A DNA stretch of 4,216 bases from a virus (IMGVR_UViG_2703718821_000005); one strand, 5' to 3'. Positions 114 through 4,216 are shown, counted from the first letter of the stretch. Translations and numbers: made by a program. The notes: generated from the letters alone by a model not told the origin.

Positions 114-269
114 TTACTTCTCAGATTCGTAGTCTACGAAGACAGCAACCTCCGTCTGGCCGGTTCGGATTCGTACCTCGCAGAGGTCTTTCCTCGTTAC
201 CAGTGCCGTCACTATGACGGTTAAACAGATGACGATCAGGGCGATTAGCATCGCCTTTTGCTGCTTCAT
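114..269 (-). CDS. hok: Hok/Gef-family type I toxin (small membrane-depolarising peptide), 51 aa
   Basis: Internal Met of the 114..326 ORF gives MKQQKAMLIALIVICLTVIVTALVTRKDLCEVRIRTGQTEVAVFVDYESEK: hydrophobic N-terminal helix, conserved RKDLCEV and TGQTEVA motifs of the Hok/Gef family. ATG at 269-267 is preceded by AAGGAG about 9 nt upstream. Closest by memory to E. coli HokC/HokD; exact paralog not certain. Confidence 0.85.
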   Translation of the reverse strand: MKQQKAMLIALIVICLTVIVTALVTRKDLCEVRIRTGQTEVAVFVDYESEK

Positions 270-326
270 AGCCTGCTGCTCCTTGCCTTTCGGCGCATAA
301 GAGGCTAATCTAAGTGTGCAAGTCAT
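114..326 (-). CDS. mok: mok-like overlapping reading frame (in-frame 19-codon N-terminal extension of hok; translational coupling ORF)
   Basis: ORF track 70-aa ORF begins MTCTLRLASYAPKGKEQQA and continues in frame into Hok, as in chromosomal mokC/hokC-type loci. ATG at 326-324 is preceded by GAGG about 8 nt upstream. Confidence 0.55.
   Translation of the reverse strand: MTCTLRLASYAPKGKEQQAMKQQKAMLIALIVICLTVIVTALVTRKDLCEVRIRTGQTEVAVFVDYESEK
283..311 (+). promoter_or_regulatory. Putative sigma70 promoter for Sok-like antisense RNA (TTGCCT -17 bp- TAATCT)
   Basis: -35 TTGCCT at 283-288, 17-bp spacer, -10 TAATCT at 306-311, inside the mok/hok coding region on the opposite strand. Predicted start near 318. 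Confidence 0.35.
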
Positions 327-389
327 AGATATGGCCTCAGATTAATGTTAAGCGTCTTGCCAGACGCGTAATGTTAACTGGGGCTTTTC
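318..389 (+). ncRNA. sok: Sok-like antisense RNA (type I antitoxin), about 70 nt, antisense to the mok translation-initiation region
   Basis: Predicted start about 318 from the promoter above. Covers the complement of the mok start codon (324-326) and its SD. Ends in a compound stem-loop: outer stem 334-340 / 378-384 (one G-U pair) enclosing a 6-bp hairpin GCGTCT-tgcc-AGACGC (352-367), followed by TTTT at 385-388. Geometry matches plasmid R1 hok/sok. Boundaries approximate. Confidence 0.4.
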
Positions 390-445
390 TCTATCTGCCT
401 TTTGGTGTTCATGCCTGAGACCGATAGCCTCAAGCACCCGCAGCA

Positions 446-473
446 ATTTTACTTAACTCCCCTTTTCCCACAA
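446..473 (-). promoter_or_regulatory. Putative hok/mok mRNA promoter (minus strand: TTGTGG -16 bp- TAAAAT)
   Basis: On the minus strand, -35 TTGTGG (plus 468-473) and -10 TAAAAT (plus 446-451). Predicted start near 439 gives about 110 nt of leader before mok and a roughly 350-400-nt transcript, as expected for hok mRNAs. Motif-based only. Confidence 0.25.
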
Positions 474-506
474 ATCGTTTTTATCCCTATTGGTAATGTT
501 CTCCCG

Positions 507-523
507 ATGTGGGATTCCCACAT
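507..523. promoter_or_regulatory. Perfect inverted repeat ATGTGGGA-t-TCCCACAT; candidate operator between divergent hok and kinase promoters
   Basis: Seen in sequence: 8-bp arms at 507-514 and 516-523 are exact reverse complements with a 1-bp spacer. The half-site TTCCCACA recurs at 465-472 (overlapping the putative hok -35) and GCCCACA at 575-581 (just upstream of the putative kinase -35). Confidence 0.3.
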
Positions 524-590
524 TGGAACGAATTCAATCAGTTAAAGACTCATCAGAATCTCACCTTTCTAAGTGCCCACAGGTGAGGCA

Positions 591-619
591 TTGCAATAAA
601 AATAGCAAACGTGTATAAA
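591..619 (+). promoter_or_regulatory. Putative sigma70 promoter for the uORF-kinase-phosphatase operon (TTGCAA -17 bp- TATAAA)
   Basis: -35 TTGCAA at 591-596, 17-bp spacer, -10 TATAAA at 614-619 with TG at 612-613. Caveat: the -10 abuts the uORF SD (619-625), so this promoter and SD-dependent uORF translation cannot both be right. Confidence 0.25.
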
Positions 620-631
620 AGGAGGTAATGC

Positions 632-670
632 ATGTTTTTCCAGTCTTATCAATCCATTACTGAGAGTTAA
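632..670 (+). CDS. 12-codon upstream ORF (MFFQSYQSITES) with strong SD; possible leader peptide coupled to kinase translation
   Basis: AAGGAGG at 619-625, 6-nt spacer, ATG at 632. Stop TAA at 668-670 sits inside the kinase SD (AAGGGGG at 669-675). Below the ORF-track size cutoff; found by reading the sequence. Confidence 0.25.
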   Translation: MFFQSYQSITES

Positions 671-679
671 GGGGGCGCC

Positions 680-1474
680 GTGGATCGGTGCGGTAATTAT
701 TTACTTAAAGATGGTCGCAGTTTAGGACAAGGGAGTTTTGGCGAAGTATTTAAGGTTGATGTCTATAACTTAACCCAGACCCACATGACCACATATGCTC
801 GCAAATACTTTTCACCTTGCCCGGACTTTGACAAGACCGCTATAAAAGAGTTGACTGATTTAAGACAGCGTTTTTTAGTTGAGATCAAAACACAATGCAC
901 TCTCAATAGAATAAACTATGATTCAATAGCGCCAATAGTTTTATTTAATACAAATGGTGATAAACCTTATTTTGTTATGGAATTGGCAGAGTGTAACTTA
1001 TATGAAGCCATCCGCAATGGTATGAACTACGCGGAGAGGAAGTCTGCTGTTACTCAGATTTTAAAAGGAATTATCACCATACATGAAAACAACTATATAC
1101 ATCGTGATTTAAAACCAGGAAACATACTTTATTATGCCGATGGAAAGTATAAAATATCTGATTTTGGTCTAGTAAAAGACAGAGATACCTTACGGGCCGA
1201 AATCAAAACAAAATTTAAGCCTAATCACATGGGCACAGATGGATATCGAGCGCCCGAAATACATGATAGCGGTCTTTTTTCTTTTCAAAGTGACATATTT
1301 GCAGCAGGTAAAATTATCACTGATATATATCCCACAGAAAGAAGTGAAAAATTAAAAAGATTGATTGCAAAATGTTGCGCACATTGGCCTGAAGAACGAT
1401 ATCAAAGCACACGGGAGTTACTGGAAGATTTTTTAAAAGTGACGGGGGAGGTAAATCATGAAGAACATAATTGA
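680..1474 (+). CDS. Hanks-type (eukaryotic-like) Ser/Thr protein kinase, kinase domain only, 264 aa, GTG start
   Basis: Glycine loop LGQGSFGEV; candidate beta3 Lys in YARKYF; catalytic loop HRDLKPGN; DFG in ISDFGL; activation segment GTDGYRAPE. GTG at 680 with AAGGGGG 4 nt upstream. AT-rich codon usage. No recognisable sensor or transmembrane domain. Confidence 0.85.
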   Translation: MDRCGNYLLKDGRSLGQGSFGEVFKVDVYNLTQTHMTTYARKYFSPCPDFDKTAIKELTDLRQRFLVEIKTQCTLNRINYDSIAPIVLFNTNGDKPYFVMELAECNLYEAIRNGMNYAERKSAVTQILKGIITIHENNYIHRDLKPGNILYYADGKYKISDFGLVKDRDTLRAEIKTKFKPNHMGTDGYRAPEIHDSGLFSFQSDIFAAGKIITDIYPTERSEKLKRLIAKCCAHWPEERYQSTRELLEDFLKVTGEVNHEEHN

Positions 1475-2174
1475 AATGGCATGTTTTAGCCTAAAACAAC
1501 CCCAAAAAAAAGAAAATGAAGACTTTTATTTACCGCCATCTTTTGATAGCGATTTTAACATTGTCTTTGCAGTAGCTGATGGGGTTGGTTCCTCTGAACA
1601 TTCAATGCTTGCATCTCATGCAGCCATTCGTGGCATTAGACACACGCTAGGCACTTCCTTTTTCTCAATTGAAAGTGCATTTCATTCAGCTAAAAAAGAA
1701 ATTGACAATTTAGATATTAGCACTGCCACAACCTTAACAATTGTTCAGATCAAAAAAAATGAAGTGTTAATTGGTCATTCCGGTGATTGCCGAGTATACT
1801 TCAATAAAAACAATAAACTAAATCAGTTAACCACTGATCAAACGAGATATCAAGAACTCCTTGATTCTGGTGAACATAAATTACGTAATTTAAGAAATCA
1901 TAAAGAACGGCTATCTTCAGTCCTAACGAATGCTTTATCAAATACAACGGATTTGAATTTTGAGTTAATGTCTTTTCCGATTAGCCAGCTAATTTATAAT
2001 GGCTATCTTCAACTCTATGCAATGACTGATGGTGCCTATAAGCATTGGGATGTCAGACCAAGGTTTTCTGAGAAGACAATGCTCTCACCAACAGCTTTTG
2101 CGAGTAGTTTAAGAAAAAGGATTGAGAAAAACATAATGGATGATTACACCTTTATAGGCGTAAAAGTAACCTAA
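1458..2174 (+). CDS. PP2C/PPM-family Ser/Thr protein phosphatase, 238 aa
   Basis: PPM-like motifs: KKENEDFY (RxxNED-like), VADGVGSS (DGxGG-like), GHSGDCRVY (GDSR-like), MTDGAY, C-terminal DDYTFIGV (DN-I/V-T-like). ATG at 1458 with GGGGGAGG 6 nt upstream; overlaps the kinase 3' end by 17 nt. Confidence 0.8.
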   Translation: MKNIIEMACFSLKQPQKKENEDFYLPPSFDSDFNIVFAVADGVGSSEHSMLASHAAIRGIRHTLGTSFFSIESAFHSAKKEIDNLDISTATTLTIVQIKKNEVLIGHSGDCRVYFNKNNKLNQLTTDQTRYQELLDSGEHKLRNLRNHKERLSSVLTNALSNTTDLNFELMSFPISQLIYNGYLQLYAMTDGAYKHWDVRPRFSEKTMLSPTAFASSLRKRIEKNIMDDYTFIGVKVT

Positions 2175-2217
2175 TTTTAGATATCCAAGATATTTACTCT
2201 AATTTAACCATAGCATT

Positions 2218-2244
2218 CCCAACCTCTTTTTATTGGGGGTTGGG
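2218..2244. other. Inverted repeat CCCAACC-(13 nt)-GGTTGGG in the convergent junction after the phosphatase gene; weak candidate bidirectional terminator
   Basis: Arms at 2218-2224 and 2238-2244 are exact reverse complements. Loop is long and T-rich (TCTTTTTATTGGG); no clean downstream U-run. Confidence 0.15.
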
Positions 2245-2327
2245 TTCATTAAAGTCACCATTTTCTATTTCTTTCCCGTTAGAGGATATATTATTTCCAG
2301 ATAAAGAAAGCAACTTCTTATGCAATT

Positions 2328-2432
2328 TCATATCACGCCATGCTTCCACCGCGGTAACTCTACATAGTCCATTAACAGTTCATGCCATTCTTCAAAACTG
2401 ACGTTGTATTTAGTTGAACCAAAATCAGCCAT
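2328..2432 (-). CDS. Small ORF, 34 aa (MADFGSTKYNVSFEEWHELLMDYVELPRWKHGVI), hypothetical
   Basis: ATG at 2432-2430 lies 2 nt past the stop of the 60-aa ORF in a different frame; stop TGA at 2330-2328. No convincing SD. Found by manual translation; may be spurious. Confidence 0.15.
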   Translation of the reverse strand: MADFGSTKYNVSFEEWHELLMDYVELPRWKHGVI

Positions 2433-2607
2433 TTTGTTCTTCCTCTTCGTCTTTTATTTCGTGATATGAGTAATTGCAGTAGTTAAAGAAAATTTCTTTT
2501 GCTTCGTTATGAATTTCATCAGGCGTCGCATCATCATTCACTTCGAATTCATCCTCGAAATCTCCACCGGCGATTCCCGTTTCAATAATTATTTTGAACT
2601 TTCGCAT
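2425..2607 (-). CDS. Small, highly acidic hypothetical protein, 60 aa
   Basis: ORF track: MRKFKIIIETGIAGGDFEDEFEVNDDATPDEIHNEAKEIFFNYCNYSYHEIKDEEEEQNG, rich in Asp/Glu with a poly-Glu C-terminus. AT-rich like the kinase operon. Possible split SD (AGGAG at 2636-2632 separated from the ATG by a hairpin). Confidence 0.4.
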   Translation of the reverse strand: MRKFKIIIETGIAGGDFEDEFEVNDDATPDEIHNEAKEIFFNYCNYSYHEIKDEEEEQNG

Positions 2608-2613
2608 TTCACT

Positions 2614-2631
2614 ACCGCCCTGCCGGGCGGT
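2614..2631 (-). other. GC-rich perfect hairpin (ACCGCCC-GGCA-GGGCGGT on the minus strand) between the SD-like AGGAG and the ATG of the 60-aa ORF, at the right edge of the AT-rich insert
   Basis: 7-bp exact stem (6 G-C pairs), 4-nt loop. Not followed by a U-run on either strand, so not a canonical terminator. Confidence 0.3.
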
Positions 2632-2754
2632 CTCCTGATGTTCTGAGGGTGCAGGAATCCCTCCGGTTAAGGATTAAATTTTATTTACAGTGCTGATTTT
2701 AATTATTCAGTTCTGGATTATGCTTTCTCTTTCACCTGCCGTAGTTCCTGGTAA

Positions 2755-3060
2755 TTAATTTCGCTCACTGGTTGCCTCCTGGAAAATAACTGCATGCCCC
2801 AGTTTCTCCGCCAGTGCCAGCTCTGCCTTAGCGCCTGCCGACCGCTGCCAGCCTTCCAGCATATAAACCGCATCCACACAACGAATCATTGCCATGCAAA
2901 TATCCATGTAATGTGGCTGAGTCAGCCCGTCCGGAAGTACTGCGGGATTTAATACGGTATGCCCTTCCTGTTTCAGTGCTTCTTCCGCCTTGTGAAACGC
3001 CTCACGGTTGAAATTTTCATATCCCGTCATCGGACCGGCGATATAAATTCTCACCCTCAC
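2755..3060 (-). CDS. DUF4406-like (nucleoside 2-deoxyribosyltransferase-like fold) phage-associated protein, 101 aa
   Basis: N-terminal RIYIAGPMTG motif resembles the IY(L/I)AGP signature of this fold; size typical of DUF4406 proteins as I recall. GTG start at 3060-3058 preceded by AGGAGG 8 nt upstream, and overlapping the upstream stop as GTGA. Confidence 0.7.
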   Translation of the reverse strand: MRVRIYIAGPMTGYENFNREAFHKAEEALKQEGHTVLNPAVLPDGLTQPHYMDICMAMIRCVDAVYMLEGWQRSAGAKAELALAEKLGHAVIFQEATSERN

Positions 3061-3338
3061 GCCTGAACCCTCCTGTCGAAATAAACGTAGTTATTCACTG
3101 CGCCCAACTTCATCCCAAACTTTTCGGCAATTTCCCGTCGGGGTACGCCACGCTGATGCAGTTGCCGCGCCAGCTCAATATCACGCTGTGAACATTTGGC
3201 TGACTGGTGATAATCACCCCGTAACATCATGCAGATACCCAGTTCCCGCGCTTTCGTCCTGACGGCAGCCCCACTACGGCCAATCAGACTGCCGATGCTT
3301 TCGACTGTCATCGTTCCCGCACACTGCCGGAGTATCAT
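3057..3338 (-). CDS. Small putative DNA-binding protein with two HTH-like segments, 93 aa from ATG at 3338 (ORF track extends to 3461, 134 aa)
   Basis: HTH-like segments MTVESIGSLIGRSGAAVRTKARELGI and RDIELARQLHQRGVPRREIAEKFGMKLGAVNNYV. Start is ambiguous: the track start at 3461 overlaps the upstream gene by 91 nt out of frame; internal ATGs at 3338 and 3311 avoid this. Stop TGA at 3059-3057. Confidence 0.55.
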   Translation of the reverse strand: MILRQCAGTMTVESIGSLIGRSGAAVRTKARELGICMMLRGDYHQSAKCSQRDIELARQLHQRGVPRREIAEKFGMKLGAVNNYVYFDRRVQA

Positions 3339-3370
3339 AATTTCCGCCCAGCGCCACTTCTTCCAGCCAC

Positions 3371-4087
3371 TCACCGCAGCAGCTCTCTGGTGGCGGTAAT
3401 ATCCCGGAGAATATCCCTGTGTTTGTTCAGTTCCCGCAGCGCGGCGCAGACACGCTCCCACTTCTGAACCTGACCTTTTGCCCGGCGCAGCTCGCGGTTA
3501 GCCACATGCAGCGATGGTAGAATCAGGTCATCTGCTTTCGTTTCGGTGACCGATGGCTGTAACTTCACAATGTCTTCCACGATTTCTGTTTTCATTTCTT
3601 CCTGTGTCGTCGTTTCCCGGACTGGTAACGCAACACCTGCTGGCTGAGGAAAGGCTTTACCATCTGTTTCCGCTACGGATGCAGCTTCCGGCTCTGCCGG
3701 TAAATCAGCGCCCGGTATGCAGTAACGAAATTTACCGCCCTGATTCACGCGAATCAGACGCCCTTTGCTGATTGCCATGGCCAGCGATGAATTCGCCCGG
3801 CGGGAGGTAATCCCGAACATCAGTGCCAGCTCATCTGCCGTTTGTGGGCCATGTTGTTCAATCGCCTTAATCAGCATTTGCGCTGTCACTTTCGGTACCG
3901 GTGACACCGGTTCACTTTCACCAGCCTGAATCAGCCACCACATCGAACCCTTGTTATCCGCTTCACCGCGGCGCTTCAGTTTCCACAGTTCGTTGACCGC
4001 ATCTTCACGGCTGATTCCAAGGCGGGCCGCCACTACCTGTGAAGAGGCTCTTTTCAGTGCTTTCAGTGCGTCAAATACAGTTTCCAT
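3371..4087 (-). CDS. Phage-like hypothetical protein with two tandem winged-helix-like N-terminal repeats and a charged, likely coiled-coil C-terminus, 238 aa
   Basis: ORF track frame 3371..4105, re-started here at ATG 4087-4085 (METVFDALK...) because GGAGG lies about 9 nt upstream, whereas the track's TTG at 4105 overlaps that SD. Repeats [41 protein letters not shown] and [43 protein letters not shown] align by eye. Confidence 0.7.
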
Positions 4088-4120
4088 TAAAATTTCCTCC
4101 GACAAAATCGTTTCTCAGAT

Positions 4121-4216
4121 TCAAATAAAACCAGCTGCCTTCCGGCGTTCGTATTCCTGTTTCAGCCGTTCAATTGGCGTTGGCCCTTGCGGGTGTTTCG
4201 CCCCTTCCAGTTGTCG
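4121..4216 (-). CDS. 3' end of an upstream minus-strand gene running off the window (C-terminus ...RQLEGAKHPQGPTPIERLKQEYERRKAAGFI)
   Basis: Only minus-strand frame open from the window edge; ends at TGA (4123-4121) 33 nt before the SD and ATG of the next gene, consistent with an operon. No start within the window; product unknown. Confidence 0.3.
   Translation of the reverse strand, partial: RQLEGAKHPQGPTPIERLKQEYERRKAAGFI

Follow-up and report, generated by a model that had tools for sequence, protein, structure and literature searches.

We analyzed a 4,216-nt stretch of viral DNA (IMGVR_UViG_2703718821_000005; hereafter, the window) whose plus strand encodes a serine/threonine protein kinase and, directly after it, a protein phosphatase of the PP2C family. 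An initial annotation had described positions 590 to 2750 as a single AT-rich island that carries these two genes, and had suggested that it was acquired from a low-GC donor by a prophage or island with a backbone of normal GC content. The closest match to the window is a prophage of Escherichia coli OkiPb01682 (locus L001), which is 99.1% identical to the window and is integrated beside potC. To one side, this prophage contains stx2a, Q, lysis genes, and terminase; to the other side, it contains replication genes, a cI/cro-like pair, dicB, an exonuclease, and an integrase; and it also carries hok/sok and relBE. The window is the nin region of a lambdoid Stx2a-type prophage (Stx is short for Shiga toxin), with the replication genes to one side and Q to the other; this bears out the prediction of a prophage backbone of normal GC. 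The minus strand carries all of the backbone genes (hok/mok, DUF7167, DUF4406, a gene for a helix-turn-helix (HTH) protein, and DUF1627); the kinase and PP2C genes are on the plus strand, opposed to the early rightward phage transcript (Table 1). We are confident that the kinase and PP2C genes belong to a 1.84-kb cassette that occupies a variable slot between hok/sok and the DUF7167 module, and that this adjacent module is an AT-rich part of the backbone.

Table 1. Features of the window. GC3 is the G+C content at third codon positions; ORF is short for open reading frame.
Feature	Positions	Strand	G+C	GC3	Details and basis
hok/mok/sok type I toxin-antitoxin locus	114..439	-			Pfam HOK_GEF, E=1e-22; Rfam sok RF01794 at 264-439, 109.7 bits vs gathering score of 59
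Kinase-PP2C cargo cassette (moron)	488..2330	+	36.1%		1843 bp; comparison with kinase-less phages and L105
Sigma-70-like promoter candidate	591..619	+			TTGCAA, 17-nt spacer, TATAAA; sequence reading and conservation
Hanks-type Ser/Thr protein kinase	680..1474	+	36.5%	0.30	264 amino acids, GTG start; Pfam Pkinase (PF00069), E=1.4e-31, 110.3 bits vs cut-off of 31.7
PP2C (PPM) Ser/Thr phosphatase	1458..2174	+	35.0%	0.285	238 amino acids, ATG start, GGAGG ribosome-binding site; Pfam PP2C_2 (PF13672), E=1.4e-10, 41.5 bits vs cut-off of 24
10-bp GC-rich hairpin after PP2C, weak intrinsic-terminator candidate	2218..2244	+			Folding
ORF remnant	2328..2432	-			34 amino acids; truncated, frameshifted form of a 58-amino-acid backbone ORF, with a 16-nt deletion
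DUF7167 gene	2425..2607	-	36.6%		60 amino acids; Pfam DUF7167, E=1e-13; PHROG 1997, E=1.4e-29
GC-rich hairpin	2614..2631	-			a/CCGCCC, loop TGCC, GGGCGG/t; folding and comparison
Second mosaic boundary, end of DUF7167 module	2710..2722	.			Homology to comparison loci L002, L003, L004, and L008 ends
DUF4406 gene	2755-3060	-			Backbone nin-region gene; Pfam
HTH DNA-binding protein gene	3057-3338	-			Backbone nin-region gene; Pfam
DUF1627 gene	3371-4087	-			Backbone nin-region gene; Pfam
DUF4406, HTH, and DUF1627 genes together		-	51-56%	0.52-0.57	

The kinase scores above the gathering threshold of its Pfam model and has the catalytic motifs of Hanks-type kinases (glycine loop, VAIK Lys, alpha-C Glu, HRDLKxxN, DFG, and APE). 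Across 33 family members, G18 and G21 (both in the glycine loop), K42, E68, H141-R142-D143, N148, D161-F162-G163, E193, D205, and R240 are invariant, and G16 and K145 are conserved in at least 90%. The protein consists of a catalytic domain only: its Pfam matches are to kinase families alone, and it has neither a transmembrane segment nor a PASTA sensor. The PP2C gene overlaps the kinase gene by 17 nt. Its product also scores above the gathering threshold and has the conserved metal-binding acidic residues of the PPM/PP2C family, with the motifs E21-D22, D41-G42, G109-D110, D191-G192, and D228-D229 being invariant in 7 diverse members. The nearest solved structures are those of bacterial PstP and tPphA (E of about 1e-5), and none of the NCBIfam models reaches its cut-off for either protein. 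Both genes are under purifying selection: the ratio of nonsynonymous to synonymous substitution rates (dN/dS) is 0.09-0.13 for the kinase and 0.02-0.08 for PP2C.

The change in composition described in the initial annotation is real. In windows of 200 nt, the GC content is 0.48-0.54 at the left end, 0.30-0.385 for positions 801-2600, and 0.49-0.59 from 2701 on. A maximum-likelihood fit with two breakpoints identified 445-2761 as the low-GC segment (36.7% GC, versus 51.6% in the left flank and 53.5% in the right flank), with a gain of 56.6 log-likelihood units over a uniform model. Both analyses confirm the GC step. Its right edge is fairly sharp (2-unit support interval of 2598-2797); the left edge is a gradient (support of 296-841), with no step exactly at 590. 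The right flank is indeed higher in GC, although the predicted value of about 57% was slightly too high (53.5% by the fit; 51-56% for the genes). The predicted dominance of A/T-ending codons was also found, at 70% in the kinase gene and 72% in the PP2C gene versus 41-48% in the DUF4406, HTH, and DUF1627 genes. The cassette itself is distinct from its surroundings, which have 50-53% GC. Within the 28-kb part of the prophage that we examined in the closest genome, no other stretch of 1.5 kb is as low in GC as this one (35.3%, versus a median of 49.2%).

The kinase and PP2C genes (680-2174) together contain 10 AGA and 14 ATA codons among 504 codons. Upstream of stx, the L001 prophage encodes two tRNA-Arg(TCT) and one tRNA with a CAT anticodon (annotated as tRNA-Ile) at 10764-11015. 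These phage-borne tRNAs may help in the expression of AT-rich cargo.

To locate the ends of the insert, we compared the window to related phages that lack the kinase. The kinase-less phages vB_EcoS-640R1, Rac, and vB_EcoS-689R5 match the window only at 1-486/487 and 2343-2722. (In Rac, the left match extends only to 456 and the right match to 2710.) By inspecting the alignments by eye, we found that the right-hand homology reaches about 2326-2331, across a 16-nt deletion. Thus the junctions lie at about 488-491 and 2326-2343, and not at 590 and 2750 as had been proposed. Position 590 is not a junction, yet it corresponds to the start of a core that is shared with the cassettes of Scandinavium and Buttiauxella; this core extends to 2177 from a start that blastn puts at 600 and the alignment at about 588, and it opens with the promoter-like site.

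We also joined the two flanks into a chimeric query and searched the E. coli genomes for loci where the flanks are close together. This identified 87 genomes with both flanks near each other. One of these comparators, a prophage of E. coli O178:H19 2012C-4431 (L105), is 99.73% identical over window positions 2343-4216, and the proteins encoded by its DUF4406, DNA-binding, and DUF1627 genes have the same RefSeq accessions as those of L001. Where the window has 488-2342, L105 has 302 bp of 49% GC. Downstream of DUF7167, L105 and the kinase-less phages encode a full-length ORF of 58 amino acids, MADFGSTKYNVSFEEWHELLMDYAELRGGSAADAEAWRDDYEAGKTPVEAYCDEWGDE, and the 34-amino-acid remnant in the window shares the first 23-24 residues with the 58-amino-acid versions (L002, L003, and L105). 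Because L105 has the 302 bp and an intact ORF and the window has only the remnant, it appears that the cassette took the place of about 300 bp and truncated this backbone ORF at its 3' end. The 16-nt deletion in the remnant is present in the clade of cassettes with 99% identity but not in the clade with 90% identity.

The initial annotation had also raised the possibility of a target-site duplication at the junctions. We looked for a target-site duplication, direct repeats, and inverted repeats at 488 and 2330 and found none, and no ORF in the cassette encodes a transposase. Transposition or insertion of an IS element, which we considered as the mode of entry, was rejected for the lack of a target-site duplication, of terminal inverted repeats, and of a transposase. 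A clean insertion between two genes is also disfavored: we did not find a truly empty slot, as the comparators hold 300-1,740 bp of other DNA and the smallest filler is the 302 bp of L105. Because every comparator has some filler DNA in the slot, replacement is better supported than insertion. We infer from these comparisons that the cassette arrived through recombination, probably as a replacement at a hot spot. That the kinase and phosphatase genes were acquired horizontally, as the initial annotation had proposed, is upheld: they are missing from otherwise matching phages, they are replaced by 302 bp in the near-isogenic L105, and they are present in few E. coli genomes (see below).

The rest of the AT-rich stretch has a different history. 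The segment 2331-2722 (39.8% GC) holds the ORF remnant, the DUF7167 gene, and the hairpin at 2614-2631; it is present in kinase-less phages at 91-94% identity and in L105 at 99.7% identity. Because kinase-less phages carry it too, this segment is backbone and not insert. The AT-rich island is thus a composite of the cargo cassette (488-2330) and an AT-rich backbone module (2331-2722), so 590-2750 does not hold up as one unit. A compositional island need not correspond to one insert, and in this case the island ends about 400 bp away from the end of the insert.

The initial annotation had noted a GC-rich hairpin at the right edge of the island. It exists exactly at the predicted position, 2614-2631, but as a backbone element: it is conserved in 8 of 8 comparators, including kinase-less phages. 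At three variable pairs, the changes on the minus strand are from C-G to U-G or from G-U to A-U, and 100% of the cells are paired; on the plus strand, the same variants give C.A mismatches. For the Rac and O103 variants, U.G pairing is kept on the minus strand only. Read on that strand, the hairpin has an AGGAG sequence (2632-2636) on one side and, on the other, the AUG of DUF7167, which is 7 nt from the stem. These observations indicate that the hairpin belongs to the DUF7167 message. It is possible that the folded hairpin would place AGGAG at a normal distance from the start codon, so that it would act as a split ribosome-binding site. We also considered whether this hairpin was an insert junction or the terminator of the kinase operon and rejected both, as it is kept in kinase-less phages and its variants pair on the minus strand only.

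These results bear on the proposal that a single recent insertion of 2.2 kb (590-2750) came from a low-GC donor, with the low GC content being a fading relic of that donor and the hairpin being the right end of the insert. We consider this unlikely. The GC step that it was meant to explain is real, but the block is composite, with 2331-2722 and the hairpin being common to kinase-less phages, and the variants of the hairpin fit the minus-strand RNA of the backbone. We return to the donor below.

On the left side of the slot, the hok/mok/sok locus is complete, and it is conserved in kinase-less phages, with homology that continues up to window position 456-487. This locus belongs to the backbone and is the landing pad on the left of the cargo slot, with the cassette's left junction just upstream of it.

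How widespread is the cassette in E. coli? Using positions 560-2330 as the query, we found it in 33 of 5,426 complete genomes, and it was chromosomal in every case. The copies fall into two groups, with 29 being at least 99.5% identical and 4 being about 90% identical. The hosts of the first group include O157:H7, O145:H28, O103:H2, O45:H2, and O121 strains, enterotoxigenic E. coli (ETEC) strains from pigs, and bovine isolates. In all four of the kinase-bearing loci that we fetched, the gene order is hok, kinase-PP2C, and then the DUF7167 region. (In the E423 locus, the DUF7167 gene is degraded and is not annotated.) Two genomes, E. coli SJ7 (NZ_CP044315) and FWSEC0003 (NZ_CP031916), have two copies each, which suggests transfer between co-resident lambdoid prophages.

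The comparison of the window with L001 is also informative about how the cassette moves. There are 0 mismatches across the 1,843 bp of the cassette, versus 32 mismatches across the 879 bp of the adjacent flanks (1-487 and 2331-2722; about 4%; p = 1.3e-16, Fisher's exact test). Farther to the right, there are just 2 mismatches in 1,494 bp. Because the cassette is identical while the adjacent flanks diverge, it moves between divergent backbones via recombination in conserved flanks; and because the divergence is confined to the segments that flank the cassette, the recombination breakpoints would lie within the hok/sok and DUF7167 modules.

These distributions leave very little room for a native origin of the AT-rich stretch, in which small genes of the nin region would be AT-rich by local habit and the kinase genes would be ancestral and lost elsewhere. 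Neighboring parts of the backbone are AT-rich as well (39.8% GC in the DUF7167 module, and 33-39% in parts of the alternative cargo). However, the cassette is present in so few genomes, and it is missing from the near-isogenic L105; a backbone ORF is truncated at the junction; identical cassettes are found in prophages with differing flanks; and homologous pairs are found in unrelated elements and genera. We consider this explanation to be extremely improbable.

Homologs with 53-92% identity are found in E. coli, Scandinavium, Buttiauxella, Xenorhabdus, Photorhabdus, Enterobacter, Dickeya, Providencia, Pantoea, and Kosakonia, and also in Vibrio, Photobacterium, Aeromonas, Shewanella, and Acinetobacter. 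More distant pairs (33-39% identity) are encoded by the phages Flotzy and phiES15, by Legionella, and by another Vibrio. The nearest relatives outside of E. coli are from Scandinavium and Buttiauxella (80-83% protein identity). A scan of species-representative genomes identified only 7 loci with PP2C directly after the kinase (L019-L025); in an eighth, from Rhodocyclus (L026), there is a weak match to PP2C about 600 bp downstream, and the rest encode generic kinases. In a search of plasmids, only Acinetobacter plasmids matched (about 69% nucleotide identity).

In all 19 of the loci that we examined, the PP2C gene directly follows the kinase gene. The spacing between them ranges from -17 to +10 nt (14 of 14 loci), and the kinase usually starts with GTG (9 of 14 loci), while PP2C usually starts with ATG (13 of 14). 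The genomic contexts are diverse. In prophages, the pair occupies moron slots between the lysis and terminase genes (Xenorhabdus, Providencia, and Flotzy) or between Q and the lysis genes (phiES15). It is also found in islands or elements of the integrative type (in Vibrio, an element that encodes an integrase and a Mob relaxase; a Dickeya island of the AlpA type, a Pantoea islet with an integrase, and a Scandinavium island beside smpB), on an Acinetobacter plasmid, and in small chromosomal islets of Aeromonas, Enterobacter, and A. baumannii. These loci thus form a portable family of two genes, in which a minimal Hanks kinase precedes a closely coupled PP2C, and the family is scattered over mobile elements and islets of Gammaproteobacteria.

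This family is AT-rich wherever it is found. Across 19 loci, the GC content of the cassette averages 35.5% (standard deviation 3.4; range 27-44%), while the flanking DNA varies from 33% to 60%. In 19 of 19 loci, the cassette has a lower GC content than its flanks (p = 3.8e-6, Wilcoxon test), and a regression of cassette GC on flank GC has a slope of just 0.24. Because the pair remains at 27-44% GC across such different flanks, we view the low GC content as a trait of the family, or of a mobile gene pool, and not as the fingerprint of one donor. This bears on the remaining parts of the single-insertion proposal. The cassette's GC content is near that of its host in the Acinetobacter plasmid (32.3% vs. 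32.9%) and in Legionella (27% vs. 35%), so an ultimate low-GC origin is possible. On the other hand, the closest relatives outside of E. coli are in Enterobacteriaceae, and even where dS is 1 or more, hosts with 51-60% GC have cassettes of 33-38% GC, with no drift toward the host visible. Similarly, a GC3 of about 0.3 has been retained although dS is at least 1 relative to the Scandinavium copy (that is, synonymous divergence is saturated). Low GC content does not name a donor when the family is equally AT-rich in hosts of 33-60% GC, so the low-GC donor of the initial annotation cannot be read from composition.

The cassette has candidate signals for its own expression. Upstream of the kinase is a promoter-like site, and the sequence GCATTGC..AAATAGyAAAsGTGTATAAAA is conserved across the E. 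coli, Scandinavium, and Buttiauxella cassettes, whose upstream DNA is otherwise unrelated. After the PP2C gene, the 91-nt stretch 2175-2265, which includes the hairpin at 2218-2244, has a predicted folding energy of -20.3 kcal/mol on the plus strand (z = -2.93; on the minus strand, z = -0.98). The stem is kept in the alleles of 90% identity, with one change from G.U to G-C.

Two other features precede the kinase. A near-perfect palindrome of 23 bp (CCGATGTGGGA-T-TCCCACATTGG) lies at 504-526, in the cassette's left arm and upstream of the promoter-like site. Its predicted fold is -16.8 kcal/mol (z = -2.98), and only the cassettes of E. coli have it; those of Scandinavium and Buttiauxella do not. 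It might act as an operator or form a hairpin in the RNA. Just before the kinase is an upstream ORF of 12 codons at 633-671 (MFFQSYQSITES) with a strong ribosome-binding site, AAGGAGG (from 629). We considered whether it encodes a leader peptide, but the peptide frame and the ribosome-binding site are not conserved in the Kylling, Scandinavium, and Buttiauxella copies, while the nucleotides are. The region 629-671 is more likely to be a structured 5' untranslated region.

What might the cassette do? In lambdoid phages, accessory genes of this kind are known as morons, a concept that goes back to Hendrix and Juhala; examples are bor and lom of phage lambda and stx of the Stx phages. Like these, the cassette is present in only some closely related phages, has an unusual composition, and lies in the variable nin region; it also has candidates for a promoter and a terminator of its own. 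It differs in that the comparators never show the flanking genes abutting: the slot is always filled, and the cassette cuts into a backbone ORF. As a matter of composition, it is an ordinary moron. Its cargo is a two-gene variant of the known prophage kinase-phosphatase modules.

The closest characterized system is KKP (kinase-kinase-phosphatase; PfkA/PfkB/PfpC), although its architecture is different. KKP is a prophage module that is both a toxin-antitoxin system and a defense system (PMC11341870). Its gene order is PP2C-kinase-kinase, with each gene being 900-1300 bp; PfkA contains a cold-shock domain, PfkB has an FHA domain, and both kinases are needed for toxicity (PMC11341870). The Gp59 protein of phage T4 inhibits the phosphatase, which releases the toxicity of the kinases (PMC11341870). 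As with KKP, the cassette combines a Hanks kinase with PP2C, is carried by prophages, and moves horizontally among temperate phages of Gram-negative bacteria and other elements. It is set apart from KKP by its architecture: there are just two genes, and the kinase gene precedes the PP2C gene in 19 of 19 loci; in the window, these genes measure 795 and 717 bp and encode catalytic domains only. We did notice that in Scandinavium hiltneri (L019), an ORF at 8098-8589, 1.4 kb upstream of the kinase-PP2C pair, has a cold-shock-like N-terminus (GTITTWFEDKGFGFIKDENG...); this may be a coincidence.

The other known systems are less similar. Hanks-type kinases on mobile elements or prophages also act in defense as single genes, as with Stk2 of Staphylococcus, PD-T4-6 of E. 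coli, and the Stk of phage 933W, which excludes HK97; these lack a dedicated phosphatase, are larger, and have extra domains. Indeed, the PADLOC models for PD-T4-6 and Stk2, which are 327 and 500 positions long, match our kinase only in part: PD-T4-6 with E = 1.2e-32 but only at positions 16-202 of 327 (the kinase domain), and Stk2 with E = 2.6e-25 but only at positions 162-360 of 500. When we compared the kinase by tblastn to a phage collection that includes 933W (AF125520), there were 35 records with E of at most 1e-3, and none of them was 933W. The TerY-P triad, reportedly described by Gao and colleagues in 2020, is said to be a defense system that combines TerY (a vWA protein) with PP2C and a Ser/Thr kinase. 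The latter two components are shared, but a vWA/TerY gene is adjacent to the pair in 0 of 19 loci, and the PP2C has no PADLOC match. Finally, Gram-positive bacteria have housekeeping pairs, Stk1/Stp1 (PknB/PstP), in which the genes for a Hanks kinase and PP2C are likewise adjacent and co-transcribed. The best NCBIfam matches are to these families, at scores far below their cut-offs (PknB_PASTA_kin, E = 4e-25, 89 bits vs. 450; Stp1_PP2C, E = 8.6e-19, 68 bits vs. 230). Our pair has no transmembrane segment or PASTA sensor, has the reverse gene order, and is accessory, rare, and mobile rather than core.

We favor the explanation that a moron cassette recombined into the slot beside a native backbone module, and that its kinase and PP2C act as a toxin and antidote against phages; taken as a whole, we think this is reasonably probable. 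For the function of the cassette alone, a role in defense or as a toxin-antitoxin system may be the best guess, at somewhat short of even confidence. In this scheme, the operon's own promoter would drive its expression in the lysogen. As a potentially toxic effector, the kinase would phosphorylate serine or threonine residues of host or phage proteins, and the co-translated PP2C would restrain it. The GTG start of the kinase, versus the ATG and the good ribosome-binding site of PP2C, would favor an excess of phosphatase. An infecting phage might upset this balance, for example by inhibiting PP2C, much as Gp59 of T4 acts on KKP; arrest of the infected cell would then follow, and the population of lysogens would be protected. 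When the prophage that carries the cassette is itself induced, antiterminated early transcription would run antisense through the cassette and could silence it. The idea that the kinase is the effector and PP2C the brake is suggested because it fits the portability of the pair, its strict pairing and tight coupling, the weak start of the kinase and the strong start of the phosphatase, and an apparently autonomous promoter that opposes the lytic transcripts. Some of the genomic contexts are also as expected of cargo with a defense or toxin-antitoxin role: the moron slots of prophages, the Vibrio integrative mobilizable element, and the places where the pair adjoins known or candidate genes of this kind (Septu PtuA/PtuB and a type II methyltransferase on the Acinetobacter plasmid, RmrA and PDC-S51 in the Dickeya island, and TacA/TacT in Enterobacter). 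KKP itself serves as a precedent. The more specific proposal, of a minimal two-gene system for phosphorylation-based toxin-antitoxin activity or abortive infection that is distinct from KKP, Stk2, PD-T4-6, and TerY-P and is silenced here by antisense early transcription upon induction, is tentative, and we put it forward only as a possibility.

Several observations weigh against this explanation. First, the pair is co-directional with the late genes in phiES15, Flotzy, Providencia, and Xenorhabdus, so antisense silencing cannot apply throughout the family, and the pair might be expressed during lytic growth. Second, the expression signals are weak: an automatic scan for consensus promoters and terminators gave no useful call within 488-679 or downstream of PP2C. 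(The scan passed over 591-619 on account of the final A in the -10 hexamer, and over 2218-2244 on account of a weak T-run.) The promoter and the terminator of the cassette are consensus-level candidates. Third, the matches to defense models carry little weight. The kinase matches the PADLOC kinase models mad6, PD-T4-6, and Stk2 over the generic catalytic domain only, and no PADLOC model matched PP2C at E of at most 0.01. PADLOC also reports PD-T4-6 in all of the surveyed strains of S. thermophilus, where it has a very mild effect on phage resistance (PMC11514479). Because the matches are limited to the generic kinase domain, and because PD-T4-6 is reported in every S. thermophilus strain, we consider them to be weak evidence. 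Fourth, the contexts are mixed: known defense or toxin-antitoxin genes are near the pair in only about 3 of 8 contexts outside of prophages. Finally, our literature searches found no paper on a two-gene kinase-PP2C family.

The pair might instead be mainly a regulator of the prophage that controls lysogeny and induction through the phosphorylation of a host or phage regulator, for instance a nucleoid silencer, with defense being secondary or absent. KKP provides a precedent, as it controls the production of the Pf prophage by phosphorylating MvaU (PMC11341870), and many members of the family are in temperate phages, some of them co-oriented with the late genes and located after Q or the lysis genes. 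But the pair is also found on a small Acinetobacter plasmid, in a Vibrio integrative element, and in phage-free islets, where it would have no obvious phage-specific target, and we view this alternative as improbable.

The plasmids and integrative elements raise another alternative, which is that the pair is purely an addiction module: the kinase would be a stable toxin and PP2C a labile antidote, and together they would stabilize the carrier with no role against phages. The two genes are tightly coupled, and the pair adjoins other stabilization loci, namely hok/sok in the window and TacAT in Enterobacter. However, having the toxin gene first would be unusual for a classical type II system, and the prophage already has hok/sok and relBE. 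Also, many toxin-antitoxin systems are anti-phage as well, so this idea overlaps with the toxin-antidote explanation that we prefer. As an account of its own, pure addiction seems quite unlikely to us.

The compositional finding is ordinary: morons of low GC content are familiar from the variable parts of lambdoid phage genomes, and both of these genes are already annotated in RefSeq. The cargo is of more interest: it is an uncharacterized and strictly conserved kinase-PP2C pair that is carried by Shiga-toxin-type prophages of O157, O145, O103, O45, and O121 strains, among others. If the pair is indeed a defense or toxin-antitoxin module, then it would be the simplest known kinase-phosphatase immunity system, and it could affect which phages, including other Stx phages, superinfect these pathogens.

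One minor point concerns the backbone genes to the right of the cassette. The longest mechanical ORFs for the HTH protein (3057-3461) and for DUF1627 (3371-4105) overlap by about 90 nt. The start codons in RefSeq, which correspond to window positions 3338 and 4087, abolish this overlap, and the longer versions of both ORFs are probably over-extended.

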